DNA of 64,000 nucleotides, from the IMG/VR virus record IMGVR_UViG_3300037418_002332; one strand, given 5' to 3'. This DNA is from a virus (Duplodnaviria > Caudoviricetes). The translations under genes were made by a program, and so were the position numbers. Shown in pieces: positions 22,726 through 40,891 of the stretch (positions are counted from its first letter, which is position 1; the number at the start of each line of letters is the position of its first letter). Below the pieces are notes generated by a model. It was given only the letters and a program-made list of their open reading frames with translations. It was not told where the DNA came from and ran no database searches.

Positions 22726-23799
22726 ATGTTCTACACTCGCGGTTATATGAATGACAAAGTCGTTCAAAACGTCAGAGATATTTTCAAAAAGCAATCCGAA
22801 ACCAAAACTGTAACTGAAAAGGCAGAAGAAGTCAAGGACGAAAAAGTTGAAAAGCTTGATGAAGAAGTTCTAACCGAAAAAGCTTCTGCTCAAACCACAA
22901 GTTTGAAAGACATCAAGAACAAAGCAGTTGAAAAAGGCAATCTAGATTCAGCTGATAAAGATAAAGTTCCTGCCGCACCTGTTGGTGATGATGACGATGA
23001 AGAAGTCGAAAAAGAAGATGAAGATCTTGAGGAAGGTTACAAAATTGGCGATATGGTCAATGTAACTAATCCTAAGGCAACTCCAAGACATCAAATTGTT
23101 GGTAAAACCAAAACACATTATGCCATTAAGAAAGACAAAGGTGATATTCAACATTTTCCAAAAGAACGTATCGCTAGAGTAAACAAGCAACGTTTCGATA
23201 GATTGAAAGCAAATGTTACTCCTAATCGTTTGAAAGGTTCAGATATTCCCGTTAGAGAAGACGTTGAATTTGATGATGTTGAACAACTTGATGAAGTAAT
23301 GAGAATTGCTTATAAGAAAGTTGGTCCAACACATTACAGAAGTGTTGAAAAAGGCACTTGGCGTCCAGTTCCTAAGAACGTTGAAATCAAGAAAGTTGGC
23401 AATACTGTACATGTTCGTAAAGACAAGGGTACATGGATTCCTAAAGGTCCGCATGTAACCATGGAATCAGTGTTGTCTGAAGAAGAGATTGAAAAGATTA
23501 ACGCAACTTTGGCTTCAATCAATGAATCAGAATCAAAAAGATTGTCAAAAGATTTGCCTGCTGGTTATCATACTGTTGCTATTCATGACGATGCTCATAA
23601 GTCTTTCCAAATGGGTGACCGTGTTCATGTTAAATCACATGGTGACGATGTAAAAGCTGGATTGGCACACGTTAAAAGTGTAAACAATGCTGGCAACAAC
23701 TATCAACATAAGCTTGTTTATCACGATGGCAAAGGTAATTTCCATTCAACTCATCATGAAAAGGGAACTCCAACTGGCCATTATGTACAAAGAGCATAA
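22726..23799 (+). CDS. Hypothetical modular protein (acidic linkers ending in (L/I)xE alternating with basic domains); putative internal head polyprotein
   Basis: AAGGAG SD 8 nt upstream; segments ...KLDE|...VLTE|...DLEE|GYKIGD...QLDE|VMR...SINE|SESKR; sits between gp18 and gp19. Confidence 0.6.
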   Translation: MFYTRGYMNDKVVQNVRDIFKKQSETKTVTEKAEEVKDEKVEKLDEEVLTEKASAQTTSLKDIKNKAVEKGNLDSADKDKVPAAPVGDDDDEEVEKEDEDLEEGYKIGDMVNVTNPKATPRHQIVGKTKTHYAIKKDKGDIQHFPKERIARVNKQRFDRLKANVTPNRLKGSDIPVREDVEFDDVEQLDEVMRIAYKKVGPTHYRSVEKGTWRPVPKNVEIKKVGNTVHVRKDKGTWIPKGPHVTMESVLSEEEIEKINATLASINESESKRLSKDLPAGYHTVAIHDDAHKSFQMGDRVHVKSHGDDVKAGLAHVKSVNNAGNNYQHKLVYHDGKGNFHSTHHEKGTPTGHYVQRA

Positions 23800-23836: not shown

Positions 23837-24388
23837 ATGGCTTTCAATATCAATAATTTCAGAAGTGAGTTGCAATATGGTGGTGCAAGAACTTCACTTT
23901 TTGAAGTCATTTTGACCAATCCAATTGATGGTTCAGCTGACACCAAGTTGCCATTCATGTGTAAAGCTGCTTCATTACCAGCTTCTTCAATTACACCACT
24001 CGAAGCATCATATTTCGGCCGTGCTATCAAGCTTCCTGGTAACAGAACATTCGATGAATGGGCAATTACTGTCATCAACGATGAAGACTTCAAAATCAGA
24101 AATGCAATGGAAACTTGGTCAAACGCGATTAACAGATATGAAGGAAACATCAGAGGACTTCCAAGTTCTTCTCCTTCATTGTATAAGACAACTGCTGAAG
24201 TTCGTCAATTCAGTCAAACAGGCAACCTGTTGAGAACATACAAGTTCGTTGGTCTTTGGCCAATCCAAATCACCCCAATTCAATTGAATTGGGAAAATGA
24301 AAGCATTCAAGAATTTGAAGTCTCATTGGCTTTGGATTACTTCTATGTTAATGATGGTGGTTTGACTGGCAACGCTGGCGGACGCTAA
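23837..24388 (+). CDS. gp19: Tail tube protein gp19
   Basis: MAFNINNFRSEL..GGAR.SLFEV...F.CKAASLPAS...YFGR.IKLPG.RTF..W.ITVINDEDF.IR..ME.W. Confidence 0.96.
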   Translation: MAFNINNFRSELQYGGARTSLFEVILTNPIDGSADTKLPFMCKAASLPASSITPLEASYFGRAIKLPGNRTFDEWAITVINDEDFKIRNAMETWSNAINRYEGNIRGLPSSSPSLYKTTAEVRQFSQTGNLLRTYKFVGLWPIQITPIQLNWENESIQEFEVSLALDYFYVNDGGLTGNAGGR

Positions 24389-24577
24389 ATGATTCGTGAT
24401 AGAATTTTGAATAGACTTGACGAAGTATCTTCAAAAACTTTGAAAGCTTACATTCGTAAAGCAAGTCATAATAATCCAGATCATGATGTACATCAGTACA
24501 ACAAACGACAAAAGAAAATTAGACTTGCTAAACAAAAGTTAAATGTGAACGGAAATTCTAAAATCGGTGCAAATTAA
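24389..24577 (+). CDS. Small basic protein with a single LDE-S.KTL..Y..KA module
   Basis: Coupled to gp19 (TAAATG); RLDEVSSKTLKAYIRKAS...NKRQKKIRLAKQKL resembles two modules in 36754..37572. Confidence 0.65.
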   Translation: MIRDRILNRLDEVSSKTLKAYIRKASHNNPDHDVHQYNKRQKKIRLAKQKLNVNGNSKIGAN

Positions 24578-24597
24578 GGGAGCTTCGGCTCCCTTTT
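24576..24597. terminator. Intrinsic terminator (UUCG loop), probably bidirectional
   Basis: AAGGGAGC-TTCG-GCTCCCTT-TT between convergent genes. Confidence 0.85.
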
Positions 24598-25183
24598 ATT
24601 TTAGGTCAGTGAGGAAAGTTCTGATATTGTTGACAACACCTTCATTCATCAAAATTTCATAATGATTAGTGCTGACATCAATGTATTTGACGTTTGGAAT
24701 TGCTTTTTGAGAAAGTACACTTACAACACCATCGTTTTGTTTACCAAGAAACAATGGATTTGAACCTTTTGTTGAAACGTAGAATTGATATGGTACAGTA
24801 ATAGGTTTGGTTAACAAATATGAATATTCTCTTTCGAGTTTGTGAAATTCACTGTAGATAGATTTTGGAAACCAAAAACGGAGTAAACTATGATTTGTAA
24901 TGCCACCAAATGGTGCAGACATAGTTGTGATGCTTCTGATATTCTTAAGGCCAAGATGGAATAGAATGACACACATGACACCACCCAGTGAATGACCAAT
25001 CAAGTCAATTTTGGTATTGTCCTCAACTCTTTTTTCAATTCTTGATTTGATTTTCTTAACAGTTTCTACCAAATCAGATTCAGTTTTGTATTCAATGTAA
25101 ATGTCATCATCTAGAGGCATCTGCGTCTTGATGTAATTGAATGAGTTCCGTGTTGAGTAGGCACCATGGATATAGATACGCAT
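24596..25183 (-). CDS. Alpha/beta hydrolase (lipase/esterase-like)
   Basis: YIHGA oxyanion motif, GHSLGG nucleophile elbow, SAPFGG, NDGVV, NHYE (putative Ser-Asp-His triad). Confidence 0.8.
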   Translation of the reverse strand: MRIYIHGAYSTRNSFNYIKTQMPLDDDIYIEYKTESDLVETVKKIKSRIEKRVEDNTKIDLIGHSLGGVMCVILFHLGLKNIRSITTMSAPFGGITNHSLLRFWFPKSIYSEFHKLEREYSYLLTKPITVPYQFYVSTKGSNPLFLGKQNDGVVSVLSQKAIPNVKYIDVSTNHYEILMNEGVVNNIRTFLTDLK

Positions 25184-25239: not shown

Positions 25240-26958
25240 ATGGCGACATTCTTTGAAAAATTGCTTGGTGTGAATCTCACAAAAGATGAAGACGAAGCAA
25301 AAGCAAAAGGTGCTTTCCAACTCCCTGAACCACCGAAAAATGACGGTTCAATTGAAGTTGATAGCAGTAACTTTTTGCAATTCGGTACTTCATTTGATTA
25401 TGCAGTTCCTGAAGACGAAGTACAACTCATCACCAAGTATCGTGAAATGGCCGAGCAAATGGAATTTGATCGTGCTATCAACCACGTTGTTAATGAATTC
25501 TTTGCATATGATACTGACACCATGCCTGTATCCATCAACCTTGAAAACACAAAACTTTCAGATAACATCAAAAAGAAAATTACAACTGAATTTGACAACA
25601 TTTTGAAGATGTTGAACTTTGGTACTGATGCATATGAAATCTTCTCAAGATGGTATGTTGATGGCCGTTTGTATTACCAAAAAGTCATTGACGAACAAAA
25701 CAAGTCCAAGGGTATCCTTGCACTCAAGTATATTGATCCTCGTAAGATCCGTAAAGTCAGAAAAAAAATAGACGACAAATCTAACAAAACGACACAAAAC
25801 AATGTTAAAAACAACATCCGTCTCGATGTGCAATACAAAGAATTCTACGTTTACAACCCAACTGGCATTAACAACACCAATGTTCAGGGTCTACAAATCG
25901 AAAAGGATTCAATCACGTATGTTCACTCAGGAAAGTTTACCAGAGAAAACAAGACCGTCATCTCACACCTGCATAAAGCCATTCGTTGGTTCAATGTTTT
26001 AAGAAATATTGAAGACTCCGTCGTCATTTATCGTTTGTCACGTGCATCTGAAAAAAGAGTATTCAACATTGAACTAGGTGATTTGCCTCAGTCACAAGCT
26101 GAAGCTCACATGAAGAAAGTCATCGACAAATTCAGAAAGAGACTTTCATACAATCCACAAACTGGTGAAGTCATTGAACAAAAACGTTTCATGACTATGT
26201 TGGAAGACTTCTGGTTCGCAAAGCGCGATGGTAAAGGTACATCAGTTGAATTTCTTCAAGGTGGACAAAACCTTGGTGAAATGGAAGACGTTGATTACTT
26301 CAAGAAGAGATTCTATGAGTCATTAAACGTTCCAATTACTCGACTTGATCCAACCATTGGTTTCACTTTGGGTCGTGCATCGGAAATCACTCGTGAAGAA
26401 CTTGCATTCTACAAATTCATTTCACGTCTCCGTAAACGTTTCAGCTATTTGTTTGAAGACATTTTGAAGACTCAATTGATTTTGAAAAATATTTTGAAAG
26501 AACAAGAGTGGAATGATGTATACCAAGACATTCACTTCGATTACCTTGAAGATACTTACTTCAGTGAATTGAAAGAAACTGAAATTTGGCAAAACCGTTT
26601 CAACGCGGCTCGTGATACAGGTGTTGAAGGCAAATTGGTTTCGCGTCTATTTGTTCAAAAGAAATTGCTTCGACTTACTGATGAAGAAATTGCTGATGAA
26701 AATAAGCAACTTGAAAAAGAAAACAATGATGATCTTGAGATAAGCTTGCAACAACAAGCTGTTCAACAGGCTGGAGCACCTGAAGATGAAGATCGTGGTC
26801 CACAACCTGGACCTGAACCAAAGTTCCAACAAGGTTCTGAAGCTGATATCAGTGAACAACTTGAATACATTAAAGAAGAACTTGAAATAACCAAGCGTCG
26901 TCAACAACGTGAAGAAACTGAGTTCTATGAAATGTTGAAAGGTCTAATTGATGAATAA
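25240..26958 (+). CDS. gp20: Portal vertex protein gp20
   Basis: LI.KYREMA...E.D.AI..VVNE...WYVDGRLYY...[11 protein letters not shown]...[30 protein letters not shown]...[28 protein letters not shown]. Confidence 0.97.
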
Positions 26959-27760
26959 TAAATTTCAAGCAGTTGCTGGTCTCATTAAAAAACTTGTTGA
27001 AAAAGAAAATGCCAAAGTAACAAAGTATTTCAATGACATTTTGGTTGAAAAAATTGATCCAACCAGAGTTCATTTGATTGAAGGACCGCAGGGTCCTCCT
27101 GGTAAAATTGGTCCAGCAAGTAACATTCCTGGCCCTCCTGGCCCAGCTGGTCCTCCCGGTCCAATTGGTATTCCTGGACCAAAAGGTAAATCAATCAAGG
27201 GTGATCAAGGACCACAAGGAATTCCTGGACCAAAAGGTGAACCAGGTCCTCCTGGCCCAGCTGGTCCTCCTGGCCCAATTTCTGATGTTAAATCTGAAGT
27301 TACAAAAATTGAAAAAACATTGCTTGAAAAATTCCAAGCATTGAAATCTGACTTGGAAAGTAGAGTCAACTTCCTTGGAAGAAGAACTGCTTCTGGTGGT
27401 GGTTCTACTCGTATTCTGGACAATGATGATGTTGATTTCCATCAGCCTGAGGACGTTCTTGACAACTCTATTTTGCTTTATGACGCATCAATTCGTAAAT
27501 TTGTGCCTCTTAACTTGGTCACAGTTATAAATAACTTGAAAAGCGAGTTGGAATTCATGTACAATAAAGTAATTGATGACACTGGCAACATTGTCTATAT
27601 CGGTGAGACTGATCCATCTGGTCTAGATTATAATGCAGCAAATTGGAGAATCAAAAGGGTTGATCAAACTGATCCAACTGATACTCGTATTACTTGGGCC
27701 GACGGCACGACTGACTTCGACAAAGTTTGGGCAGACAGAACAACTTATACTTATTCATAA
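26951..27760 (+). CDS. Collagen-like virion protein
   Basis: About 20 Gly-X-Y triplets ([12 protein letters not shown]...GPAGPPGP), GGGS..I..DDV, C-terminal VYIGE.DP...WRIKR...W.DGT..F..VW.DR..Y.Y; overlaps the portal stop. Confidence 0.75.
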
Positions 27761-28284: not shown

Positions 28285-28860
28285 ATGCCATTAGTTGATA
28301 GCAATCTCGAGTCTACATGGTTACAATTATACAGCTGTGAAATCGACGGGAAAATCGTTGGATTTGATCGTTCCGCCAAACAACAGTATTTTGGTAATGA
28401 TCATATGATCCTTAAAGATGCTCTCCAACTTACTCCTGAAGATGGCATAGTATTAATTGGTGGAGCATTTGGTTGGGTAGCAGAAGATTGGATCGCTACT
28501 GGTCTTTCTGTAATTGTTACCGATACTTCTACATGGATTCAAGCTCACAAAGCTGAACAAGCTACAATTCCAATTCTTTTTGAATCATCTCTTACACCGG
28601 AATCTAGAGCAACTATTGCGGAAGCAATGGGTCGCCCAATTACAGTTGTCATTACTGAAGATGTACTTCCCAATTTGACTGATAATGAATGTGTTGAATT
28701 GTCAAATGCTATGCGTTTGATGTCACAAAATGTTGTTCATTGGGTATCATGTGCAACACCAAGTTCAGGCGGTGGATTGAATTGGAAGACTGCAGATGAG
28801 TGGAAGCAATTACTTGGTCCTGACCGCATCGTTCGTCGCGGCACAAGTGAGGTGATCTAA
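28285..28860 (+). CDS. Class I SAM-dependent methyltransferase-like protein
   Basis: IVLIGGAFGW (motif I-like), V..TDTS.W (motif II), VVITEDVLPNL.D.E, NWKT..EWK.LL; AATAAATA at 28251-28258 upstream; start set to ATG 28285 after AGGA. Confidence 0.45.
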   Translation: MPLVDSNLESTWLQLYSCEIDGKIVGFDRSAKQQYFGNDHMILKDALQLTPEDGIVLIGGAFGWVAEDWIATGLSVIVTDTSTWIQAHKAEQATIPILFESSLTPESRATIAEAMGRPITVVITEDVLPNLTDNECVELSNAMRLMSQNVVHWVSCATPSSGGGLNWKTADEWKQLLGPDRIVRRGTSEVI

Positions 28861-31800
28861 TGGCATTACCTGTAACAATTACTGGCATTGATACTGCCGT
28901 TAATCCAGTTGGCCCATTCAGGTCATCTGCTGGTAACTATTATTTCTTCGGTAAAGATAGCACCACCGCAACGACATTACAGGCTTTCAAATCTACGGCA
29001 CCAACCTCTTCTTGGTCAAGTGCTGCAACAAAAACTGGTTTTACTACTGGTGTTCAAGCTATTTCAGGTTTCCAGGTAGCTGATGTTATTCATCTAGCTG
29101 TAACAGATGGTGCAACTACATCTGTTAACTTCAAATATGTCACCTACAATATGTCGACTGATGCTTTCGGCACAACCGAAACAATCACATCAGCACTGAA
29201 TACCCAAACTAACGGACTTGTTAACGCTTACGGAAACTCTATCGCTGTTCGTTCTGATGGTACAGTTGTAGTTCTTCACCAAGGTGCTCGTGTTGTCAGC
29301 ATGAGCAACTCGTACTCACGTACTGTATATTCAAGACGTGCAACGAACGGAACATGGACAGCAAACATTGCTGTCGATGCTGGTGGTGCATTTGATGGCC
29401 TTGTATTTGACACTGCAGTAGGTACAAGTGACAACGTTCACTTCATGTTTATGGCAGGTTCTGGTACTTTCTCGCAGAGAACTTTGTCCAGTGCAAACGT
29501 TCTTCAGACACAATCAACTGCAATCAATGGTGTTTCATTTACAGGATCAATTCTTGGTACTTCGGTATCATATCTGAGCACTAATCAGAGAGTTGTCTTT
29601 GGTGTTACCACTCAAGTACAGCAAACCAACTTCATTCCGGCCGGTTTCTATTTCGATTCTGGGAACACACCTACACTGACTAGTACTGTAGGCGGTGGTA
29701 CCAACACATCAACTTCACGTCTATTTCAGTATAATGGAACTGTTTACCACCTTTGGAATGTCACTGGTAACAATGCTAATATCAATTTGCACACATCAGC
29801 AGATAATGGTGCTACGTATGTTTCATCTTCAGTAGTTTACACTGGCACTTCTACTTGTAGTTTGTTTTCGCATGACGGTGCAGTTTATCAAAGCGGAAGT
29901 AACATTGTTGTTCCATATCTTATATTGGATAACGGCACATTAAAATACAATGAATACACTGTACAATATGGTTTGGCTGCTTCCATAACAGAAGCAAATG
30001 ATACAGTTTCATCAACTGCAAATCCAAAAATCACTGCCAACAATCCGGGTGGTGTTGCATTCACACAACAAGCTGCACCAAGTGCTGGCACAAAAAGTTG
30101 GCAAGCAGTAGCATCATCAACTACTGGTTCAACTGTTTGGGCAGCAGTTTATGGTGGCGGCATCTATAAATCTACCGACTATGGTGCAACTTGGGCACAA
30201 AGAGTTGGTGCTGCAAATTTCCAAGATATTTGTTCTTCCGCTAATGGCCAAGTTGTAGCAGCTGTTGATAACAATGTCGGTAACATTTGGTCAACTACTG
30301 ATGGTGTAAACTTTACAGCAAGAACTGGTGCTGGGTCAAGAGCTTGGTGGGCTATCGCTTGTTCTTCCGATGGTAGCAGAATGGTTGCTGTCATCAATGG
30401 TACAGGCTATACATATACATCGTCTGACTCAGGTGTAACTTGGACTGAACAAACTGCTGCTGGTACCAAAAACATTAACGCACTTGCGATGTCGTCAGAT
30501 GGAAGTATCGTTTATGCTTGTTATGGTGCAAGTCCTTATCGTATCTATAAATCTACTGATTATGGTGTTAATTGGACATTACTATCCAACTCACCTACAT
30601 CGTGGTGCAATGCTATTACTTGTTCTGCTGACGGAACTCAAATTTACGCTACAGTCGGTGGTGGCAACATCTATGCTTCGACTGACTCAGGATCAACTTG
30701 GAATGCATTATCAGGTGCCGGAACTGCAAATTGGGGTATGATCTCATGCAGTTCTAGTGGCACTAAAGTAATCGCTGCATCATATTCTAACAGTGTATTA
30801 ACTTCGATTGATTCTGGTGCCACTTGGACTACAAATCCAGTTGGTTCAAGTACATGGCAAGATGTCGGTATATCCCCTGACGGAAGTACATGGTTCGCAT
30901 TAGCTTATGGCAGTTACTTCTACACTGGTGCATTGAGTGCACCAAAACAAATTGTAGCAATACAACCAACATCATTTGGTGCTGCAAACTTTGGTGATAT
31001 TACAGCGGATACTGGACTTGGCCAAACGTTTATTCCTCGTTATTTGGTTCCAGGTCTTATACAAACCTCAACCATCAATGGCGGTTTAGTTTTTGGTTTT
31101 AATTCAACCTTTAAAGGTTTAGCACAAGCTATCACGCCTGCTACCAATTCTACAGTTGATCGTATAACTTTCAATATGTACAAAACTGGTACTCCAACAG
31201 ATAATGTTTGGGTAGAACTTCGAGATAATACTGGAGCATCAATTATTGCCACATCAAATACTGTGGCAGGTTCTTCAATCAATTCTGGTTCATCTAGTAG
31301 TCAAGACATTCAATTTACTTTTGCGTCTCCACCAACGTTGAATGCAGGTACAACCTACATTTTGTTGGTTCAACGTAGTGGTGCAGTAGATTCTTCTAAT
31401 TACTATTCTATTAACGCTGATTACACAAATCCTTATGCTGGTGGTGATTCATACTCTTGGAATGGATCTGCATACACCTTAAATGGTGGTCAAGATCTTG
31501 CATTTGCTGTCTATAGCACATCAACTGCTACAGTTGTAATTTCTGATATTACTTTGAAACTTATAAAAAATGGTTCGCCTACTGATAATCTCACTATTGA
31601 ATTGAGAGATTCGACAGGTGCTACTTTACTTGGAACATCAGATGCAATTGCTGGCGCAAGTACTTCATCAAGTACAACAGCTACAACGTTTACATTTTCA
31701 ACACCCGTCAGTATTACAGCCGGAACAACATATATGTTTGTTCTGCGAAGATCAGGTGCAGTCGATGCTTCCAATTATTGGGGTGTAGTTAGAAATAACC

Positions 31801-34800
31801 AAAATCCTTATCTGGATGGTGCTGCATACACATACAATGGCAGTACATACACCGTTATCAGTACTCCAACTGACTTAGTCTTCACTGTTAATTCACCAAT
31901 ACAAAATATTGGTAATATCACCGAAGCTGATGATACAGTTTCTGCTGTTGGTACGCAGGTTGCGTTCGATAGAAATGCAGTTGTTGCGGCGACGGAAGCA
32001 AATGATACTGTATCATCAACTTCAACACTTGCTACTCATGCTGCTGCTTCAATAACAGAAGCAGATGACACTTCATCTTCTGCATCAACTATTACATTAA
32101 AAGCGAATGCGTCAATTACGGAAGCAAATGATACTGTTTCGTCAACTTCTGCAATTGCTATCAAAGCAGCTTCAACAGTAACTGAAGCAAATGATACTGT
32201 ATCTGCTATAGTACAGTTGACACCTATTGCTGGTGTTGCTTCAATAACAGAAGCTGATGACTCTGTTAGTTCAACTTCAACGAATTTGACTCATGGTAAT
32301 GCTTCTATAACGGAAGCAGGTGATACGTCAACTTCAGCATCAACTCTCTCTTTGAAATCTGTTGCTACAATAACAGAAGCAGATGATACTGTTTCGTCAA
32401 CTTCTGCAATTGCTATCAAAGCAGTTTCAACAGTAACTGAAGCAAATGACACTATCGTTTCCGCCTCTGCAATTGCTATCAAAGCCAATGCTTCCGTAAC
32501 AGAAGCTAACGATACTATTTCGTCTACCAGCACACTTGTAATCAAAGCAACATCAGCGTCAGTTATCTCTCAAACTGATGACTCTCAGAGTGTTGGTATA
32601 GGTCGAGATACTTCAACTCAATCTATAAATCAAACAATAATTCCGCCAGCGAACATCAATCTTAACTCGATTACGCTTGAAATTTCTAAAATTGTTGCAC
32701 CAACAGATGATTGGTTTGTTGAGGTTCGTAGTGGCGACGGTGCCACATTAATCGCAACATCAAATGCGTTTAATGCATCTAGTATAGTTTCAGGTTTCAA
32801 CACATTTACATTTGCTTCACCAGTAGCGCTGACCGGTGGAACCACTTATATGCTTAGATTGAGAAGAACTACACTTAACTTCTCAAATTACTTGATTGTG
32901 TGGTATTCATACCCGTCACTATATCCATATGGTGAAGCATACATCTATGATGGTTCAAATTATAATTTGCTAGATGGCGACTTGTATTTCAAGTTGAACA
33001 CAGTTGGTGTAATCATTGAATCGAATGATACTGTTTCGTCAACAACAACCATTGCGATCAAAGGTTCGGCCTCGAACACAGAAGCAGGAGACACGGTATC
33101 ATCAACCGCAAAACTGCTAATCTATGCCAATCTCAGCAAAGGTTACTATCAAACCAATTCTGGCGATTTAAATTTTAACTGGTCTGGTGGTTCGGCGGTA
33201 TCTGGTGACAAATCTATCATGCTTGCTGCGGCGTGGGAAGATACTGTTGGCTATCCATGGATTTCGACAGATCGTGGTAATTCGTGGACAGAATTGAATA
33301 GCAATGGTCTGCCTTCTGCTAATTATCAGCAGGGTAGTGTGGCGTCATCTTATGACGGCAACCTGCTTGTCGCAGTTGCCAATAACAGCGACGTTTATAT
33401 TTCCACTAATCGTGGCGTAACATGGACATTATCTGTTTCGTATACTTCTGTAACTGGTCTAGAGATATCCGCTGATGGCAGTACGATTTATGTCTCGCCT
33501 AATAGTGGTGTGTATGTCTCAACTAATAGTGGAGCAACATGGAACGCTGGAACAGGAATTTCCGGTGCCTTCCGTGGTGTTTCCTGCTCTAGCAATGGTG
33601 TAATCGCTTACGTTTATTCCGGCACTCAACTGTGGAAAACTATAGATTCGGGTGCGACATGGACACAAAATACTACGATTGACGCACTTGTTGATGCAAA
33701 CTCTCTTGTCTGCTCTGATGATGGCTTGTTTGTTGGGGTAATCGATGAACCTTCATGGCCAAATGCAAACTACAATCGTTCATTTGATGGTGGTGTAACG
33801 TGGACTACATCCTCTCCATTTTCTCATGGATTTAAGATTGGTGCGTCACAAGACGGCTCAATTCAGTATGCTCTTGGTGCTATTGGCGCTGATCCTGCTA
33901 CACTAATAACATCAATCGATTATGGTGTAACGTGGACTGGCGTTGGCACTCCTATTGGCAACATCACCAATTATCAAATGTCAGTTTCGGCCGATGGCCG
34001 TTTTATGTTCTTTTTGAATGATGATGATTGGACATTCTATGCTTATGATCTTGTCAGTCCAATTACAGAAGCCGACGATACCGTATCATCAACATCTGTA
34101 CTTGCAATCAAGGCAACAACAGATAGTGTAACTGGTGCTGTCAATGTATTGCTTGCTAATGATAACGGCTTTAGTTGGGTATATCCATTAGTTTCTGGTG
34201 ATGGATCAGTATTCATGGTGATGGCAAGTTCTGCACCATGGGCATCTTATGATCGAGGTGCAACTTGGGCTGCACTGACTGGCGCACCAAATCTACAATG
34301 GAATGTTGGTGGATCGTCATATGACGGTAATGTGATTATCGGTGGTGCATGGGCATCAACAACTCACCTGTACAAATCTACCGATAAAGGCGCTACGTGG
34401 ACAGGCATCCCAGCTACGCTGACCAATGCATCGCATGGTGGTACATGGTCTGCAATCGGAGTTTCAGGTGATGGCAATGTGATTGTTGCTGGTGAAGCTG
34501 GCACAACCAACATCATCTTGTCCAATAATGGCGGCACGTCTTGGACACAAAAGACTGGATTTGGCGGCGATTCTACTTGGAAGGGTAACGATTTTGCGCT
34601 GTCAAACGATGGTTCTATCATTTATGCAACTTTCCTAAAAGGTGATATCACCACTGGAAAGTTATATAAGTCTACAGACTCAGGAGCAACGTGGAGCGAA
34701 CTGACTTCTGCTGGAACACATGCGTGGGCGGAAGTTGCGTGTTCATCAAATGGATCTTACGTAACAGTTACAGCTTATGGTAGCCTAGCATACCGTTCAT

Positions 34801-36710
34801 CTGACGGCGGTTCTACTTGGACGCAAATTACTGATGCAGCAACAAATGTGTATGGTGTTGCTGTATCGTCAGATGGTTCAATTCAGTACATTTCTGCAAA
34901 TGACAGCGTAATTCGTTCTACAAATTTCGGTGCAACTTGGACACAGGAAACTGGTACTGATACACCATACAATGACTACATCGCTGCGACTGCAGATGGT
35001 AGTGCATCTTTGTGGATCAACTACGACACCTATTATCTTGAAGGTTTCCAACAAATATCCACTCATCTTGTCGAACAGGATGACACAATCAGCTCAACTG
35101 CTGTGTTGATCAATGGTGTTACAGCAAATGCTTCTATTACAGAAGCTAATGATACTATATCATCTGTTGCCCATAATCCAATTGTTGGTCTTGTTTCTAA
35201 TAGTGAAGCAAGTGACTCAGTTAGTTCAACTGCAACAATTCAAATCAAAGCTGTTGTAACTATCACAGAAGCAAATGACACTGCTGGTTCAGCATCTGTT
35301 CTACCAATCAAGGGCGCAGAATCAAACGCGGAAGCTGATGATACAATTTCATCAACTGCAATTCTGTTGCTTAAAGCTGCATCTACAGTAACTGAAGCGA
35401 ACGATACTTCTACATCAACCGCAGTCATCACCATAAAAGCAAATGCTTCAAATACAGAAGCAAATGATAGCATTTCTTCAACTTCTGTTCTTCCGAACAA
35501 GGCTGCGAGTGCTGTAACGGAAACTGATGATAGCATTTCTTCAACTTCTGTGTTGCCGATCAAAGCGGTTGCGATCGTTACAGAAGCTGATGATATAGAA
35601 TCATCAGTTGCTCATAATCCAATTGTTGGTACAGCTTCTGATACGGAAGCAGATGATGCTATATCATTTACTGGTGTTCTTCCGATTAAAGCTACTTCAG
35701 GAGTCACTGAGGCAAATGATACTGTAAGTTCAACAAGTACAATTTTGATTAAAGCAGCTGCTTCTATCACTGAAGCGAACGATAGTATTGCATCAACTGC
35801 AATCCTGCCAATTCTAGCTGTTTCAAACAATACTGAAGCAAACGATAGCATTTCTTCAACAAGTTCTGCTCCTGTATTAGCTGTATTGAATTCTGTTGAA
35901 GCGAACGATAGCGTCAACTTCGCTTCAGTGATTACTTTGAAGGCAAATGCTTCAATTACTGAAGAAGATGATAGTCTAAGTGCTTCCGCAGTTAAATTCA
36001 ATCCTGGTGAAGCAGTTGCAAATATAACTGAAGATGATGATACAGTCAATTCAACTTCATTTATTACTTTGAAAGGCGCATTGGCTGTCACTGAATTAAG
36101 TGATACGTCAAGTTCAACTGCAACTTTGAAGATTGTTGCTGCTTCCGCAAATTCAGAAGCAAGTGACACCATTTCATCCACTTCTGCTTTGTTGGTTAAA
36201 GCAAATGCATCAAATGCGGAAGCAAATGATTCAGTAGCATCTACCTCAATTGTTCAAATTAGAGCAGCGGCAAGTATTACTGAAGCAAGTGATATTGTTT
36301 CAAGTGATACTCAATCAAGTATATTTGCCACAGTCAACGTTATTGAAGATGACGATATTGCTTCAATTTCTTCAAGATTGTCAATCAATTCATCAGCTGA
36401 TCTATTTGAAGATGACGATATCGTAAGTTCTACTGCAAATGTTGATGTTGTAGCTGGTGAAACTACTGTTGAAGATGACGACATCATCTTGGCAATAGGT
36501 GAATTGGTCATTCAGGCTGTTTCCGAAAATGTTGATGATGACGATACAATCGCTTCAATTGGAAAACTTTTGATTCTAGCAACTTCTGATATCATTGAAG
36601 AAAATGATCATGTAGATGCGCAAAATCAAAGATTTGGAACTTGGATTACAGCAGAAACATCCAAAAATCCAAAGACTGTTAAAACACTATACTATGCTGA
36701 CATATTGTAA
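28860..36710 (+). CDS. Giant (2616 aa) fibre/adhesin-like virion protein with BNR/Asp-box propellers, beta-sandwich repeats and about 39 copies of a 21-aa repeat
   Basis: Numerous S.D.G.TW Asp boxes in three clusters; three copies of a (G.)PTD...VE.R...GA...TS...FTF..P.....GTTY domain; repeated TE(A)(N/D)DT(V/I)SS units. Confidence 0.75.
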   Translation: MALPVTITGIDTAVNPVGPFRSSAGNYYFFGKDSTTATTLQAFKSTAPTSSWSSAATKTGFTTGVQAISGFQVADVIHLAVTDGATTSVNFKYVTYNMSTDAFGTTETITSALNTQTNGLVNAYGNSIAVRSDGTVVVLHQGARVVSMSNSYSRTVYSRRATNGTWTANIAVDAGGAFDGLVFDTAVGTSDNVHFMFMAGSGTFSQRTLSSANVLQTQSTAINGVSFTGSILGTSVSYLSTNQRVVFGVTTQVQQTNFIPAGFYFDSGNTPTLTSTVGGGTNTSTSRLFQYNGTVYHLWNVTGNNANINLHTSADNGATYVSSSVVYTGTSTCSLFSHDGAVYQSGSNIVVPYLILDNGTLKYNEYTVQYGLAASITEANDTVSSTANPKITANNPGGVAFTQQAAPSAGTKSWQAVASSTTGSTVWAAVYGGGIYKSTDYGATWAQRVGAANFQDICSSANGQVVAAVDNNVGNIWSTTDGVNFTARTGAGSRAWWAIACSSDGSRMVAVINGTGYTYTSSDSGVTWTEQTAAGTKNINALAMSSDGSIVYACYGASPYRIYKSTDYGVNWTLLSNSPTSWCNAITCSADGTQIYATVGGGNIYASTDSGSTWNALSGAGTANWGMISCSSSGTKVIAASYSNSVLTSIDSGATWTTNPVGSSTWQDVGISPDGSTWFALAYGSYFYTGALSAPKQIVAIQPTSFGAANFGDITADTGLGQTFIPRYLVPGLIQTSTINGGLVFGFNSTFKGLAQAITPATNSTVDRITFNMYKTGTPTDNVWVELRDNTGASIIATSNTVAGSSINSGSSSSQDIQFTFASPPTLNAGTTYILLVQRSGAVDSSNYYSINADYTNPYAGGDSYSWNGSAYTLNGGQDLAFAVYSTSTATVVISDITLKLIKNGSPTDNLTIELRDSTGATLLGTSDAIAGASTSSSTTATTFTFSTPVSITAGTTYMFVLRRSGAVDASNYWGVVRNNQNPYLDGAAYTYNGSTYTVISTPTDLVFTVNSPIQNIGNITEADDTVSAVGTQVAFDRNAVVAATEANDTVSSTSTLATHAAASITEADDTSSSASTITLKANASITEANDTVSSTSAIAIKAASTVTEANDTVSAIVQLTPIAGVASITEADDSVSSTSTNLTHGNASITEAGDTSTSASTLSLKSVATITEADDTVSSTSAIAIKAVSTVTEANDTIVSASAIAIKANASVTEANDTISSTSTLVIKATSASVISQTDDSQSVGIGRDTSTQSINQTIIPPANINLNSITLEISKIVAPTDDWFVEVRSGDGATLIATSNAFNASSIVSGFNTFTFASPVALTGGTTYMLRLRRTTLNFSNYLIVWYSYPSLYPYGEAYIYDGSNYNLLDGDLYFKLNTVGVIIESNDTVSSTTTIAIKGSASNTEAGDTVSSTAKLLIYANLSKGYYQTNSGDLNFNWSGGSAVSGDKSIMLAAAWEDTVGYPWISTDRGNSWTELNSNGLPSANYQQGSVASSYDGNLLVAVANNSDVYISTNRGVTWTLSVSYTSVTGLEISADGSTIYVSPNSGVYVSTNSGATWNAGTGISGAFRGVSCSSNGVIAYVYSGTQLWKTIDSGATWTQNTTIDALVDANSLVCSDDGLFVGVIDEPSWPNANYNRSFDGGVTWTTSSPFSHGFKIGASQDGSIQYALGAIGADPATLITSIDYGVTWTGVGTPIGNITNYQMSVSADGRFMFFLNDDDWTFYAYDLVSPITEADDTVSSTSVLAIKATTDSVTGAVNVLLANDNGFSWVYPLVSGDGSVFMVMASSAPWASYDRGATWAALTGAPNLQWNVGGSSYDGNVIIGGAWASTTHLYKSTDKGATWTGIPATLTNASHGGTWSAIGVSGDGNVIVAGEAGTTNIILSNNGGTSWTQKTGFGGDSTWKGNDFALSNDGSIIYATFLKGDITTGKLYKSTDSGATWSELTSAGTHAWAEVACSSNGSYVTVTAYGSLAYRSSDGGSTWTQITDAATNVYGVAVSSDGSIQYISANDSVIRSTNFGATWTQETGTDTPYNDYIAATADGSASLWINYDTYYLEGFQQISTHLVEQDDTISSTAVLINGVTANASITEANDTISSVAHNPIVGLVSNSEASDSVSSTATIQIKAVVTITEANDTAGSASVLPIKGAESNAEADDTISSTAILLLKAASTVTEANDTSTSTAVITIKANASNTEANDSISSTSVLPNKAASAVTETDDSISSTSVLPIKAVAIVTEADDIESSVAHNPIVGTASDTEADDAISFTGVLPIKATSGVTEANDTVSSTSTILIKAAASITEANDSIASTAILPILAVSNNTEANDSISSTSSAPVLAVLNSVEANDSVNFASVITLKANASITEEDDSLSASAVKFNPGEAVANITEDDDTVNSTSFITLKGALAVTELSDTSSSTATLKIVAASANSEASDTISSTSALLVKANASNAEANDSVASTSIVQIRAAASITEASDIVSSDTQSSIFATVNVIEDDDIASISSRLSINSSADLFEDDDIVSSTANVDVVAGETTVEDDDIILAIGELVIQAVSENVDDDDTIASIGKLLILATSDIIEENDHVDAQNQRFGTWITAETSKNPKTVKTLYYADIL
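31910..36620 (+). repeat. 63-nt (21-aa) tandem repeat tracts, interrupted by globular domains
   Basis: e.g. SITEANDTVSSTSAIAIKAAS; tracts at about 31910-32550, 33010-33130, 34060-34110 and 35060-36620, plus one copy near 29980. Confidence 0.85.
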
Positions 36711-36720: not shown

Positions 36721-36753
36721 ATTCAAGAATAAGATTTAGGAGTCCAAATCAAC

Positions 36754-37572
36754 ATGAAGAAACTAATCGATTACATTGATAACGAAAAGTTGTCAAAATT
36801 CACTGAAAATGCAAAGTCTATCTTAACTAAAAAGATGGAAGCAGCAGTTGACAACGAACGTTTCGAAGTTGCTGCAAACTTCTTCGGTCCAATTACCGAA
36901 TCAGATGATTATGAAGAAGCTGAACCAAATATGGATGTTGACATCGATCCAGAAGACTGGGATGAAGACGAAATTGCTGAACTTGAAGCAATTGTTTGGG
37001 ACGAAGATGACGACGGCGACATCGATGAAGATGACGTCAGTGATTTGACTTACGAACAAGTTGTATATGCTGTAGAACGTGCAGAACAACTTGATGAAAT
37101 ATCAAAGAAGCTTCTTGGTTCATATGTTGATGCTGCTGCCGATGATTTGAAATTCACTGCTAGACAAGGTGGAAGAGAACATGCAAGAGGTGAAAATACC
37201 AAAAAATCTTATGATGCAGCAAATAAGCGTCTTAAAGGAATTCGTATGGCAACTAAGAAGTTGACCAAAGAACAAGTTGAACATCTCGTTGAACTTTCAA
37301 GAAAAACTCTTGCATCATACACCAGAAAAGCTGCTGATGACATGGCTTCAAAGCATGGTGAAAACCTTTCAAATAGAAAGGATCACGAAGCAAGACAAAA
37401 TAAATTGAACAATGCTGAACATAATGCTGATTGGGAAACTAAGCAACATTTGAGAAAAGCTGCTCAAGCAGACAGAGATGTTGGACATGAAAAAGAAAAC
37501 AAATTGAGAAGAGGCATTTTCAAAAGATCTATTGGCATCAAGAGAGCAACTGATAGATTGGCAAAGGACTAA
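36754..37572 (+). CDS. Prohead core protein (gp67/gp68-like position) with two C-terminal basic modules
   Basis: Directly upstream of gp21; helical N-terminus (...ERFEVAANFF), very acidic middle, then QLDE|ISKKLLGSYV... and LVE|LSRKTLASYT... modules. Confidence 0.65.
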   Translation: MKKLIDYIDNEKLSKFTENAKSILTKKMEAAVDNERFEVAANFFGPITESDDYEEAEPNMDVDIDPEDWDEDEIAELEAIVWDEDDDGDIDEDDVSDLTYEQVVYAVERAEQLDEISKKLLGSYVDAAADDLKFTARQGGREHARGENTKKSYDAANKRLKGIRMATKKLTKEQVEHLVELSRKTLASYTRKAADDMASKHGENLSNRKDHEARQNKLNNAEHNADWETKQHLRKAAQADRDVGHEKENKLRRGIFKRSIGIKRATDRLAKD

Positions 37573-37578
37573 TCATCA

Positions 37579-38232
37579 ATGAAACTACTTAGAGAAATCA
37601 ACGAACAAGTTGAATACCTTACAGAAGCTGATGCTAAAACTGGCAATAAGAAGTATATTCTGGAAGGAATTTTCCTTCAAGGTAATCTAAAAAACAAAAA
37701 TGGTAGAATTTATCCTGTTGACGTTCTTGAAAACGAAGTAAATCGATACAATGAACAATATGTCAACAAGAATAGAGCATATGGTGAATTGGATCACCCA
37801 TCTACACCATCTATCAATTTGTCAAATGCAAGTCACGTCATTACTGAACTTACAAAAGTTGGTGACAACTTCATTGGTAAAGCACGTGTTCTTACTGAAA
37901 CTACAAAAGGCAAAACTGTAAAAGCCATCATGGATGAAGGTTTGTCTCTTGGTGTTTCATCAAGAGGTATGGGTGCCTTGAAAGAAGACAAGTCAGGTTC
38001 AAAAGTTGTTGAACAATACTTCTTGACAACTGCTGCTGACATTGTTGCTGATCCTTCTGCTCCTGATGCATTTCCAGAAAATGTATTTGAAAATGTTGAA
38101 TGGATTTTGACTAATGAAGGTTGGATTAAGCAAGAAGCTGGATTCAAACTTGTTCAAGAAATGAAACAAAAGTCTAAAGTTGAACGTGAAGAACAGTTCT
38201 TCAGAGCGTTTAAAGCACTTTTGAACAGCTAA
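37579..38232 (+). CDS. gp21: Prohead protease gp21
   Basis: LEGIFLQG..KN.NGRIYP..VLE.EV.RY...RA.GELDHP...SH.I...GKA.V...T.GK...GVSSRG.G...DIVADPSAPDAF. Confidence 0.96.
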   Translation: MKLLREINEQVEYLTEADAKTGNKKYILEGIFLQGNLKNKNGRIYPVDVLENEVNRYNEQYVNKNRAYGELDHPSTPSINLSNASHVITELTKVGDNFIGKARVLTETTKGKTVKAIMDEGLSLGVSSRGMGALKEDKSGSKVVEQYFLTTAADIVADPSAPDAFPENVFENVEWILTNEGWIKQEAGFKLVQEMKQKSKVEREEQFFRAFKALLNS

Positions 38233-38244
38233 GAACTACACTCT

Positions 38245-38252
38245 TATAAATA
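38245..38252 (+). promoter_or_regulatory. T4 late promoter TATAAATA for gp22
   Basis: Exact consensus in the intergenic region. Confidence 0.85.
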
Positions 38253-38283: not shown

Positions 38284-39492
38284 ATGGCTAAAAAGCTTGA
38301 AGAACTTTTGAAAGAACAAGAAGATGAACTTCTTCAAGGTTCAGATGAAGCAACAGACGAATTGAACGAAGAAGCTGTTGATGACGAAGCATCTGATGAA
38401 GTTGATGCTCCAGAAGCTGAACTTGAAGACGAAGAAGACGCTGAAGAAGTCGAAGAAGCTGCATATCCTTCAATCGATTTCCAAAAGGAAAAAGTTAAGG
38501 GCGGAAAAGGCGGCAAGGCTGTTTATCCAACCGTTGACTTCAAGAAATCTGTAGCAAAAGGTGGTGCTCAACAACCTGGTAAAATGGCGAAAGTCGATTT
38601 CAAGGGTGATAGAGACGGCAACACCAATAAAAAGACTCCAGTTGATCCAGAATCATATCCAAAAGTTAGACCAAACTTCGAACCTGAAGTTGTTGCTAAC
38701 ATGACCAGAGAAGATATCTCTGACGAAACAAGAGCGCATCTTGCTAGCTTGTTCGCAGGTGAAGAACTTTCTGAAGAATTCATTGCGAAAGTACAAGAAA
38801 TTTTTGAAGCAGCTGTTATCGTAACTGCTCAAGAAGCTCTTAACGCAAAAGTAAAAGAAATTGTTGAAAAGTATGAAGCTTCATTCGAAACAGTTCTTGA
38901 AACTGCAGAAGCTGAAGTTGAAACTTACAAGCAAGAATTGAATGAAAAGTCAGACGCATACTTTGATTACGTTGTTGAACAATGGGTTGAAGAAAACAAA
39001 CCAGCTGTTCATGCAAATATCAAGTCTGATTTGACTGAATCATTCATCAAAGGTCTACAAAATCTATTCGTCGAACATTACATTGATATCCCTGACGACA
39101 AAGTAGAAGTTGTGGAAGAAATGGTTGAAGAACTTGAAGCACTTCGTGATCGTAACGAAGAAATTCTTCATGAAAATCTTCAATTGAAGACTGAAGCCAA
39201 GAACGTCGTTAAGTCATTCTTGATCAGAGAGCATACAAAGGACCTTTCAGAAAACGAAAGAGAAAAGTTCCAAGCTTTGGCTGAACATATTTCTTTCGAT
39301 GATGAAAAATCTTTCCAAGGCAAATTGAGTGAAATCAGTGACACATATTTCAATGAATCAGTTGTTGTTGAGTCATCCCTTGAAGATGATACACCATTGG
39401 AAACTATCGAAGAAGAAGTGAAACCAGTTGGTAAAGAACTAACTGAAGTTGAAAGTATGGCTGCAATGATGACTAAGTTCCTCAAAAAATAA
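38284..39492 (+). CDS. gp22: Prohead core scaffold protein gp22
   Basis: Acidic coiled coil; LF.GEELSEEF..K...IFEAAV, Y.DYVVEQW.EEN..A....IK..L.ESFI.GL..LF.EHYID.P; lies between gp21 and gp23. Confidence 0.92.
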   Translation: MAKKLEELLKEQEDELLQGSDEATDELNEEAVDDEASDEVDAPEAELEDEEDAEEVEEAAYPSIDFQKEKVKGGKGGKAVYPTVDFKKSVAKGGAQQPGKMAKVDFKGDRDGNTNKKTPVDPESYPKVRPNFEPEVVANMTREDISDETRAHLASLFAGEELSEEFIAKVQEIFEAAVIVTAQEALNAKVKEIVEKYEASFETVLETAEAEVETYKQELNEKSDAYFDYVVEQWVEENKPAVHANIKSDLTESFIKGLQNLFVEHYIDIPDDKVEVVEEMVEELEALRDRNEEILHENLQLKTEAKNVVKSFLIREHTKDLSENEREKFQALAEHISFDDEKSFQGKLSEISDTYFNESVVVESSLEDDTPLETIEEEVKPVGKELTEVESMAAMMTKFLKK

Positions 39493-39497
39493 AAAAA

Positions 39498-39505
39498 TAT
39501 AAATA
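39498..39505 (+). promoter_or_regulatory. T4 late promoter TATAAATA for gp23
   Basis: Exact consensus upstream of AAGGAG and the gp23 ATG. Confidence 0.88.
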
Positions 39506-39535: not shown

Positions 39536-40891
39536 ATGAATAATGAACTTGAAAAGCTTTTGGAAAAGTGGAACCCAGTTCTCGACCTTGATGGTCTTCC
39601 AAAAATTGCTGATTACCATAAAAGAGCAACTACAGCAGTTCTGCTTGAAAACCAAGCAGTTGCTAACAAAGAAACAGTTCGTAGAGAACCATCCCTTTCT
39701 TTGACTTACTTGATGGAAGCTGCTCCAACAAACAGCATGGGTACTTCAGAAGCAGGTACTGGTAACATCGATTACCAAGACCCAATCTTGATCTCCCTTG
39801 TTCGTCGTTCAATGCCTAACTTGATGGCATATGACGTTTGCGGCGTTCAACCAATGACTGGCCCAACCGGCTTGATCTTTGCTCTTAGATCACGTTACTC
39901 AGCTCAAGATGGTATCGAAGCTTTGTTCAACGAAGCTAACACCACTTTCGCTGCATCTGCTGCAGGTAACACTGCTTCAGTAACTGCTGCTGGTTTGCAC
40001 ACCGGTGCTGATCCTTCCCTTCTTATCTCATCAGGTAATACTGCTTACTTGACTGGTAGAGGTATGTCAACTGCTGCTCTTGAAGCACTTGGCGATAAGT
40101 CAACCAACGCTTTCCAAGAAATGTCAATGAGTCTTGAAAAGATCGCCGTTACTGCGGAAGCAAGAGGCGTCAAGGCTGAATATACCCATGAACTTTCACA
40201 AGACTTGAAGGCAACTCACGGTCTTGATGCTGAAAGCGAATTGGCTAACATCCTTTCAAAGGAAATCTTGGCTGAAATCAACCGTCAAGTTATTCGTTCT
40301 ATCTATACAACTGCTACCATTGGTGCACAACAAGGCGGTCTTGCGCAAGCTGGTTACTTCGACCTTGATGTTGACTCAAACGGTCGTTGGATGGAAGAAA
40401 AGTTCAAAGGCTTGATGTATCAAATCGAAAGAGAATGTAACGCTATTGCGCAAGCAACTCGTCAAGGTCGTGGTAACTTCATTATCACTTCTTCAGACGT
40501 TGCATCCGCTCTTTCAATGATCGGTATCTTGAAGTCAACTGATGGTCCTGACCTTCAAGTTGATGACACTGGTAACGTTTTTGCAGGTACCATCCTTGGT
40601 AAGATTAAGGTCTTCATCGACCCTTACTTCACCTCAAACGCTGGTAACAACTTCATCGCCGTCGGTTACAAGGGTTCATCACCTTTCGACGCTGGTATGT
40701 TCTACTGCCCATACGTTCCTTTGACCATGTACAGAACTCAAGGTCAAGATAACTTCCAACCAAAGATTGGTTTCAAAACCAGATACGCTCTCGCAGCGCA
40801 TCCTTTTGCTACCACCGCTGCGGATGGTAAAGTTCATGTTAACAAGAAGAACAAGTACTACAGATTGTTCGCTGTTAAGAACCTTACATAA
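39536..40891 (+). CDS. gp23: Major capsid protein gp23
   Basis: EKWNPVLD...LLENQ...DPILISLVRR.MPNL.AYD.CGVQPMTGPTGLIFALR...QDLKA.HGLDAE.ELANILS.EILAEINR...YCPYVPL...FQPKIGFKTRY. Confidence 0.98.
   Translation: MNNELEKLLEKWNPVLDLDGLPKIADYHKRATTAVLLENQAVANKETVRREPSLSLTYLMEAAPTNSMGTSEAGTGNIDYQDPILISLVRRSMPNLMAYDVCGVQPMTGPTGLIFALRSRYSAQDGIEALFNEANTTFAASAAGNTASVTAAGLHTGADPSLLISSGNTAYLTGRGMSTAALEALGDKSTNAFQEMSMSLEKIAVTAEARGVKAEYTHELSQDLKATHGLDAESELANILSKEILAEINRQVIRSIYTTATIGAQQGGLAQAGYFDLDVDSNGRWMEEKFKGLMYQIERECNAIAQATRQGRGNFIITSSDVASALSMIGILKSTDGPDLQVDDTGNVFAGTILGKIKVFIDPYFTSNAGNNFIAVGYKGSSPFDAGMFYCPYVPLTMYRTQGQDNFQPKIGFKTRYALAAHPFATTAADGKVHVNKKNKYYRLFAVKNLT

Follow-up and report, generated by a model that had tools for sequence, protein, structure and literature searches.

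The DNA analysed here is a window of 64,000 nucleotides (the whole stretch, with positions counted from its first letter) from the 247-kb genome of an uncultured virus in IMG/VR. The genome has a GC content of 39.8% and is estimated to be 97% complete. Its source is a distant T4-like phage. The portal protein is less than 50% identical to that of any cultured phage, and the nearest ones belong to an Ochrobactrum jumbo phage and cyanomyoviruses. The first part of the region contains, in order, a 357-aa ORF, gp19, a 62-aa ORF, a convergent alpha/beta-hydrolase gene and the gp20 portal gene (25240-26958). After the portal gene come a collagen-like ORF, two small ORFs, a 2,616-aa ORF, a 272-aa ORF and then gp21, gp22 and gp23. 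The features considered below are as follows.

23837..24388, + strand: gp19 tail tube gene (Pfam Phage_T4_gp19 6.7e-9; phrog_45 1e-51)
24389..24577, + strand: 62-aa ORF (P0002), a leader plus one module; pI 10.6
24389..24424, + strand: 12-aa leader MIRDRILNRLDE, a predicted propeptide whose C-terminal end is an LxE motif (LDE)
24425..24574, + strand: module copy 1, 50 aa, net charge +10, zero internal [LI]xE
24576..24605, + strand: intrinsic-terminator-like hairpin (GGGAGC-TTCG-GCTCCC and a T run) right after the 62-aa ORF
36738..36742, + strand: ribosome-binding site AGGAG, 11 nt 5′ of the ATG of the 272-aa ORF
36754..37572, + strand: 272-aa ORF (P0001), a gp67-like prohead core protein fused to two modules
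36754..36891, + strand: long N-terminal helix (aa 1-46), putatively homologous to T4 gp67 (prohead core protein, pip)
36892..37098, + strand: acidic, disordered region (aa 47-115) that includes [LI]xE three times (ITE, IAE, IDE) and has LDE at its end
37099..37293, + strand: module copy 2, 65 aa, net charge +6, pI 9.9, a predicted helical hairpin after LDE
37294..37569, + strand: module copy 3, 92 aa, net charge +9, pI 10.2, three predicted helices and a longer core, after LVE
37579..38232, + strand: gp21-type prohead protease, Peptidase_S77 (Pfam PF03420 1.5e-33; phrog_207 4.2e-68)
38284..39492, + strand: gp22-type scaffolding protein (Pfam T4_CASP 1.5e-61)
39536-40891, + strand: major capsid protein gene (gp23)
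39710..39718, + strand: LME in the major capsid protein, aligned with LTE of T4 gp23 (LME/A versus LTE/A)

Some of the neighbouring genes had features of their own. The 357-aa ORF (22726-23799, +), immediately 5′ of gp19, comprises acidic spacers and six [LI]xE sites, one of which is E-Q-L-D-E followed by a non-module domain. It also has two similar short G-D-x-V-x-V segments and was without a family match; judged by these features, it may be another protease-processed mosaic protein. The convergent alpha/beta-hydrolase gene (24596-25183, -), between the tail tube and portal genes, is lipase/esterase-like according to weak PGAP1 and Abhydrolase_1 matches. The collagen-like ORF (26948-27760, +) starts within the end of the portal gene and contains G-P-P repeats (Pfam Collagen 1.3e-6). 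The 2,616-aa ORF (28860-36710, +), located 3′ of the portal gene and 5′ of the gp67-like one, encodes S-T-D-x-G-x-T-W repeats that resemble BNR/Asp-boxes (with weak matches to Pfam BNR_6 and PSII_BNR) and dozens of repeats of the type I-T-E-A-N-D-T-V-S-S-T. Its product probably belongs to the virion surface or to a fibre, the gene having been inserted in the head gene cluster. The T4 late-promoter motif TATAAATA occurred nine times in the window versus 2.3 expected, with copies just 5′ of the gp22 and gp23 genes (38245-38252 and 39498-39505, +).

A repeated module with conserved ends

The preliminary description had placed three modules at 24425, 37099 and 37294, each right after an LxE site and with lengths of about 50, 65 and 92 aa, and we found them there, in frame and with exactly these lengths. 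Its count of three copies in two genes was too low. A third carrier gene of 236 aa (genome 242604-243314), about 36 kb downstream and outside the window, has two further modules, preceded by LIE and IDE, and thus the genome has a total of five modules in three genes. The start of the third gene overlaps the stop (ATGA) of an Acb1/57B-like 2H phosphoesterase gene on its 5′ side, the pair spanning genome positions 242020-243314 (L003:824-2010). The phosphoesterase-like gene matched Pfam Acb1 at 2.3e-6, just over the cut-off, and T4 57B at 2e-6 in BLASTP.

The likeness among the copies was more than chance. BLASTP between the 62-aa and 272-aa proteins gave E values of 2e-4 and 8e-4. In addition, HMMs of the two flanks were built from foreign metagenomic modules only, with the phage's own copies left out, and run on six frames of the 247-kb genome. 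Both ranked the same three ORFs on top. The N-flank HMM scored them at 1.7e-19, 1.7e-5 and 4.1e-5 (next match 0.8), and the C-flank HMM at 3e-12, 0.34 and 0.57 (next 4.7). When the DNA of the five N-flanks was aligned, conservation was seen at the codon level only, with synonymous differences. Therefore, the copies are old ones under protein-level constraint, and recent DNA duplication was rejected as their origin.

The 62-aa ORF requires separate consideration. It is short; a word search for homologues returned only the protein itself, with no close homologue of similar length, and no small module ORF after gp19 was found in 80 related loci (two of the 80 had modules, both beyond the portal gene). 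Its C-flank score is also weak (E 0.57), and its match to the module profile A1 (E 2.2e-8) came from a profile that includes copy 1 itself. One might thus suppose that the ORF is not a gene and that it resembles the other copies by chance or as a decayed remnant. We consider this highly improbable, since the HMM from foreign sequences found its N-flank at E 1.7e-5 and the ORF was in the top three genome-wide for both flanks. The frame is open from an ATG abutting the gp19 TAA stop (TAAATG) to a stop with the terminator hairpin directly 3′. Its module has zero internal [LI]xE and a net charge of +10, in keeping with the other copies, and a 64-aa single-module ORF with an analogous layout (MLTFSEYLTE/LSKRTL..., the slash marking the module boundary) is present in contig L120. 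The 62-aa ORF is therefore very likely a real gene. The hairpin at 24576..24605 extends into the 3′ end of the hydrolase gene, which runs convergently, and is common to both genes.

An HMM search for a wider family had been proposed in the preliminary description, and the family that emerged was very large. The A1 profile, an alignment of 33 modules, was searched against 1.84 billion metagenomic cluster representatives (50% identity) and matched 5,876 protein clusters at E<=1e-3, 2,633 at <=1e-10 and 337 at <=1e-30; the number of modules in one protein reached 11. A word-based search gave 28 multi-module proteins. The 146 best (representative, non-redundant) proteins have 660 modules, 3-10 per protein, with lengths of 50-115 aa (median 68). 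The N-flank follows the consensus [LIV]xE-[LIV]-S-K-x-T-L-x-x-Y-x-x-K-A and is separated by the variable core from the C-flank, K-R-x-x-G-I-x-x-A-x-x-K-L; all five own copies conform to this pattern. Residues E6, Y15, R50 and A57 are invariant in the 33 modules.

No entry in Pfam, NCBIfam or PDB matched the module in sequence searches; weak DUF7443 matches spanning module junctions (E 0.008) were below the cut-off. The only library match was PHROG 5709, with the module region of P0001 (E 2.7e-5). This PHROG (the Cr30 gp064 type) is one 676-position model of a multi-domain protein rather than of the module, and has no functional annotation. Among 50,697 GenBank phage records, at tblastn sensitivity, the module was present in three phages only: Caulobacter phage Cr30, Prochlorococcus phage P-TIM68 and Synechococcus siphovirus S-SKS1. 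The gp064 protein of Cr30 has four modules and starts with MRSKILAE/ISKKTL. A profile search revealed zero modules in the T4 genome. In the literature we found no published description of the module and no virion proteomics for the module proteins of Cr30, P-TIM68 or S-SKS1. The family is widespread, large and not previously named.

AlphaFold2 predicted from the module alignment an antiparallel two-helix hairpin with helices at 9-35 and 41-63 (mean pLDDT 84.7). The model of the full 272-aa protein (pLDDT 67) begins with a long helix at the N-terminus (2-43); then come an acidic region predicted as disordered, the first hairpin, a low-confidence linker (173-178) and a second module of three helices. 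According to these models, the variable core is mainly the distal, variable-length part of the two helices and not a displayed loop. Thus, of the helical hairpin with variable loops envisaged earlier, the hairpin was upheld by the prediction; in place of loops, the models mostly have distal helix segments, and the 92-aa copy gains one more helix. Residues around the LDE are non-helical in the predicted hairpin, and the cut site before the module would be accessible in such a structure. Foldseek against PDB returned generic helical hairpins only (E>=0.42). The best of these non-significant matches were the tRNA-binding arms of seryl-tRNA synthetases, and neither the P22 scaffold nor any other scaffolding protein was among the top 50 PDB matches listed.

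Protease motifs around and inside the modules

That each module follows an LxE-type site had been noticed in the three copies of the window, and the rule applied to the whole family. At the N-boundary of the anchored modules, [L/I/V]xE was present in 546 out of 546 cases (146 proteins), with L in 330, I in 187 and V in 29, and the interiors were nearly free of the motif. The own module boundaries are LDE, LDE, LVE, LIE and IDE, and all five copies have zero internal [LI]xE. Within module interiors (27,294 residues), [LI]xE was observed once, against 85.6±8.6 in shuffles, although these sequences are related to one another and the shuffle counts are therefore not strict probabilities. The same single case compared with 42.2±5.7 in shuffles when only the variable cores were counted. 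Similarly, [VMF]xE was observed 11 times in cores versus 48 expected. Comparatively, the control [LI]xD was not depleted in cores (95 observed, 97.5 expected), and the controls E-x-[LI] (48 versus 43) and A-x-E (65 versus 77) were also counted there. Outside the modules of the same 146 proteins, [LI]xE was found 1,414 times versus 686±22 expected, which is about twofold. The contrast, both within the same proteins and against the Asp control, is very large.

In T4, gp21 cuts after the Glu of L/I-X-E (PMC9026906); it degrades gp22, gp67 and gp68 and trims internal proteins (PMC9026906, PMC9958956). The gp22 scaffold of the present phage has 15 [LI]xE sites, or 3.7 per 100 aa, compared with a genome average of 1.16. 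Its major capsid protein has LME where T4 gp23 has LTE at its maturation cleavage site, and this alignment suggests that the LxE specificity of the protease is conserved in the present phage. Peptidase_S77 is encoded by its genome and by all three cultured carriers (Cr30, P-TIM68 and S-SKS1). The P1′ residue at module boundaries is L, I or V; the readable T4 sites have Ala there. Taken from these sequence patterns, the boundaries and the internal composition of the modules look as if they were shaped by the head protease.

In the 272-aa protein, every site either belongs to the acidic part or coincides exactly with the start of a module. Residues 50-115 have a net charge of -31, and the acidic stretch of aa 47-115 is predicted to be cut into small acidic pieces. 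The predicted products are four N-terminal pieces, three of them strongly acidic, and peptides of 65 aa (+6) and 92 aa (+9). The 62-aa protein would give the 12-aa leader and a 50-aa peptide (+10), and the third carrier small N-terminal pieces followed by peptides of 73 aa (+8) and 83 aa (+10).

Gene context and relation to T4 core and internal proteins

The 272-aa gene ends 6 nt before the Peptidase_S77 gene. For aa 1-110 of its product, phrog_1064 (T4 gp67) was the only match (E 0.012, colinear over 1-72). An hhalign comparison of ten family N-termini (the 272-aa protein and nine relatives) with T4 gp67 gave a probability of 83% and an E value of 8.8e-6, with aa 2-46 aligned to 2-46. Pairwise BLASTP of the 272-aa protein with T4 gp67 and gp68 gave nothing significant, and thus the N-terminus is tied to gp67 by profile comparison only, which argues modestly for homology of the helix. 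The two proteins have in common the N-terminal helix, an acidic tail and a position just 5′ of gene 21. However, T4 gp67 is 80 aa long and ends with its acidic tail, whereas the 272-aa protein adds two basic modules of 65 and 92 aa. The gene neighbourhood also differs from that of T4 gp67 by about 10 kb of extra genes, including the 2,616-aa ORF, between the portal and 272-aa genes.

Modules in relatives were surveyed in 80 IMG/VR loci, which were found via the canonical motif with a seven-sequence alignment. Within 10 kb of the modules, S77 was present in 32 of the 80 loci and a portal gene in 37. Where both genes were present, the modules lay between them in 27 out of 29 loci; P0030, P0006 and P0114 likewise lie between Portal_T4 and Peptidase_S77 on T4-like contigs. 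Further modules occur in an ORF between S77 and the capsid gene, which is the gp22 slot. As a separate observation, the gp22-type scaffolding gene itself has one to three modules near the N-terminus of its product in several T4-like contigs (L008:8961-10124; L109, L112, L113, L120, L134).

About half of the 80 sampled loci lie outside the head cluster. A cytidyltransferase-like gene was found 2-7 kb upstream of the modules in 29 of the 80 (L111-L186), and the same arrangement of cytidyltransferase and then module is present in Cr30 and P-TIM68. At these 29 loci, only the leader-like N-termini would associate the modules with the head. The start MK[ST][FY]...[LIV]xE was present in 19 of 171 family proteins versus none of 664 control ORFs, and it resembles the leaders of T4 IPI, IPII and IPIII (read from NC_000866). 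In P0083, the cytidyltransferase-like domain and modules appear to be fused in one protein. In another protein, L006:1664-4285, a cytidyltransferase is fused to a Zeta_toxin/AAA domain; this protein also contains a module, and its first residues, MKFRDFLLKE, form a T4-like leader. The cytidyltransferase context would be compatible with packaged enzymes, without proving them; the own genome has no cytidyltransferase-like gene.

The present carriers are similar to T4 IPI, IPII and IPIII in several respects. Both are small and basic, and both are proposed components of the prohead core. The T4 proteins begin with a short leader that terminates in [L/I]xE and is removed by gp21, and a short segment with the same terminal motif is predicted to be removed here. 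The T4 IP genes and the module genes are both scattered and highly variable between phages. T4 has the order 57B and then ipI, and the present phage has the Acb1/57B-like gene and then the two-module gene, although this adjacency was found in none of the 80 module loci and is not a general context. The T4 leaders are of the type MKTYQEFIAE, about 10 aa long; the 12-aa leader of the 62-aa ORF resembles this targeting sequence at the terminal LxE (LDE) and is otherwise unlike it. A difference is that the module is a repeated cassette with conserved ends, often in 3-11 copies per protein, which would be released from polyprotein-like carriers or core proteins, whereas each T4 IP is made from a single precursor. 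Homology to T4 IPII (hhalign with A1, probability 0.1%) and to T4 gp68 (0.3%) was rejected.

T4 gp22 and gp68 are core components processed at L/I-X-E, and in relatives the module is embedded in a gp22-type gene. Nevertheless, cut sites are frequent in gp22 (the own protein has 15), and the modules have essentially none. Giant phages of the phiKZ-like and SPN3US-like types have a diverged gp21-type protease, which cleaves many proteins inside the head C-terminally to a Glu (PMC9026906). No module shared between those phages and the present family is known. Their cleavage motif is of the type small residue-x-E, and that type (A-x-E) was not depleted in module cores. From these comparisons, the module system would work like the T4 internal and core proteins and would be homologous to them only in the gp67-like N-terminus of one carrier.

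Possible fate of the modules

The analysis shows directly the module family and where its members begin and end, how the motifs are distributed, which fold is predicted and which genes lie nearby. As the module always follows a protease motif and is without the motif inside, it is probably carried into the capsid and excised there as an internal head peptide. We consider it reasonably likely, although by no means certain, that the prohead core brings in basic peptides of 50-92 aa, which gp21 then sets free and which remain in the head. Several of the results above count against this: the many loci away from the head cluster, the leader of the 62-aa ORF with its small likeness to the T4 targeting sequence, the P1′ residues at the boundaries, the relatedness of the sequences in the motif counts, and the lack of a module in T4 and of homology to T4 gp68 or IPII. 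The computationally testable parts of the earlier interpretation came out in favour, which gives it partial support.

The mechanism might be as follows. The module would be a small basic helical hairpin, whose helix 1 starts at S-K-K-T-L-x-x-Y-x-x-K-A and whose helix 2 ends with K-R-x-x-G-I-x-x-A-x-x-K-L. The conserved ends would pack together and the middle would be free to vary in sequence and length. Modules would be made as part of three proteins that are built into the prohead core. One is the gp67-like core protein with two modules, encoded just 5′ of the protease gene. Another is the 62-aa mini-protein with its 12-aa leader and one module, which may be translationally coupled to the tail-tube gene. 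The last is the two-module protein, apparently coupled to the Acb1/57B-like gene, at what would be the ipI position in T4. As the head matures, the serine protease of the gp21 type would cut after the Glu of the [L/I]xE before every module, as well as at the numerous [L/I]xE sites of the acidic stretches and spacers. As the modules are without [L/I]xE inside, they should be left as separate peptides (50, 65, 92, 73 and 83 aa) with net charges of +6 to +10. Their masses of 5.7-10.6 kDa probably make them too big to escape from the shell. As internal head peptides, they may remain beside the packaged DNA and might reach the host cell along with it. Core incorporation, cleavage, head retention, DNA binding and injection are steps that we infer from the results above.

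The modules might instead serve assembly only, as basic scaffold or core binding elements that hold on to the inner capsid face or to gp22 and gp67 at their acidic parts, are cut off to dismantle the core and have no role after maturation. Their fusion to gp67-like and gp22-like core proteins would suit such a role, as would their basic charge beside strongly acidic core segments. The P22 scaffolding protein binds coat protein through a C-terminal helix-turn-helix, and the predicted hairpin may be analogous to this domain, but the P22 scaffold was absent among the top 50 Foldseek PDB matches listed. Moreover, scaffold parts of the T4 type are degraded via many internal L/I-X-E sites, and the modules are nearly free of these, which suggests selection to survive the protease. 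Many carriers have 3-11 modules with very different cores, which are hard to fit to one conserved binding partner, and single-module mini-proteins also exist. An assembly-only role thus seems unlikely to us. It is also conceivable that the modules are unrelated to the head and are cytoplasmic nucleic-acid-binding or regulatory repeats, in which [L/I]xE has a structural role, for example as a linker or helix cap, and is not cut. In favour of this, many carriers are encoded away from the head genes, and the best, non-significant fold matches of these basic hairpins are the tRNA-binding arms of seryl-tRNA synthetase. However, such repeats would leave unexplained the depletion inside modules of [LI]xE (about 40-fold) and [VMF]xE (about 4-fold) while [LI]xD is not depleted, as well as the twofold enrichment of [LI]xE elsewhere in the same proteins. 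They would also leave unexplained the gp67-like and gp22-like fusions, the T4-like targeting leaders and the portal-protease slot, where S77 was within 10 kb in 32/80 loci versus about 10% by chance as estimated from window and genome size. We therefore regard a role apart from the head as distinctly improbable.

If the modules are indeed internal head peptides, a further step can be imagined, which we put forward as a speculation with a rather small chance of being right. The cassettes might be the main internal head proteins of a large share of uncultured aquatic T4-like phages, a protamine-like set of peptides released by the protease, coating or accompanying the DNA and injected with it, and their varying cores might be host-specific counter-defence effectors that are swapped between carriers by recombination in the conserved flanks and spacers. 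T4 internal head proteins include injected anti-restriction and host-takeover factors, and T4 IPI acts against GmrSD. No diversification mechanism was found for the module cores.

To our knowledge, no part of T4-type virions is understood as poorly as the internal head proteins, which are essentially unannotated outside the T-even phages. The present analysis defines a cassette that can be recognised from sequence in thousands of metagenomic protein clusters and that has no entry in Pfam, NCBIfam or PDB. If the peptides behave as proposed, the cassette would give a simple rule to predict which peptides uncultured phages package and inject, offer a natural design by which capsids could be loaded with peptides, and add a new pool of candidate DNA-associated or counter-defence effectors. 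A cultured and tractable test system exists in gp064 of Caulobacter phage Cr30.
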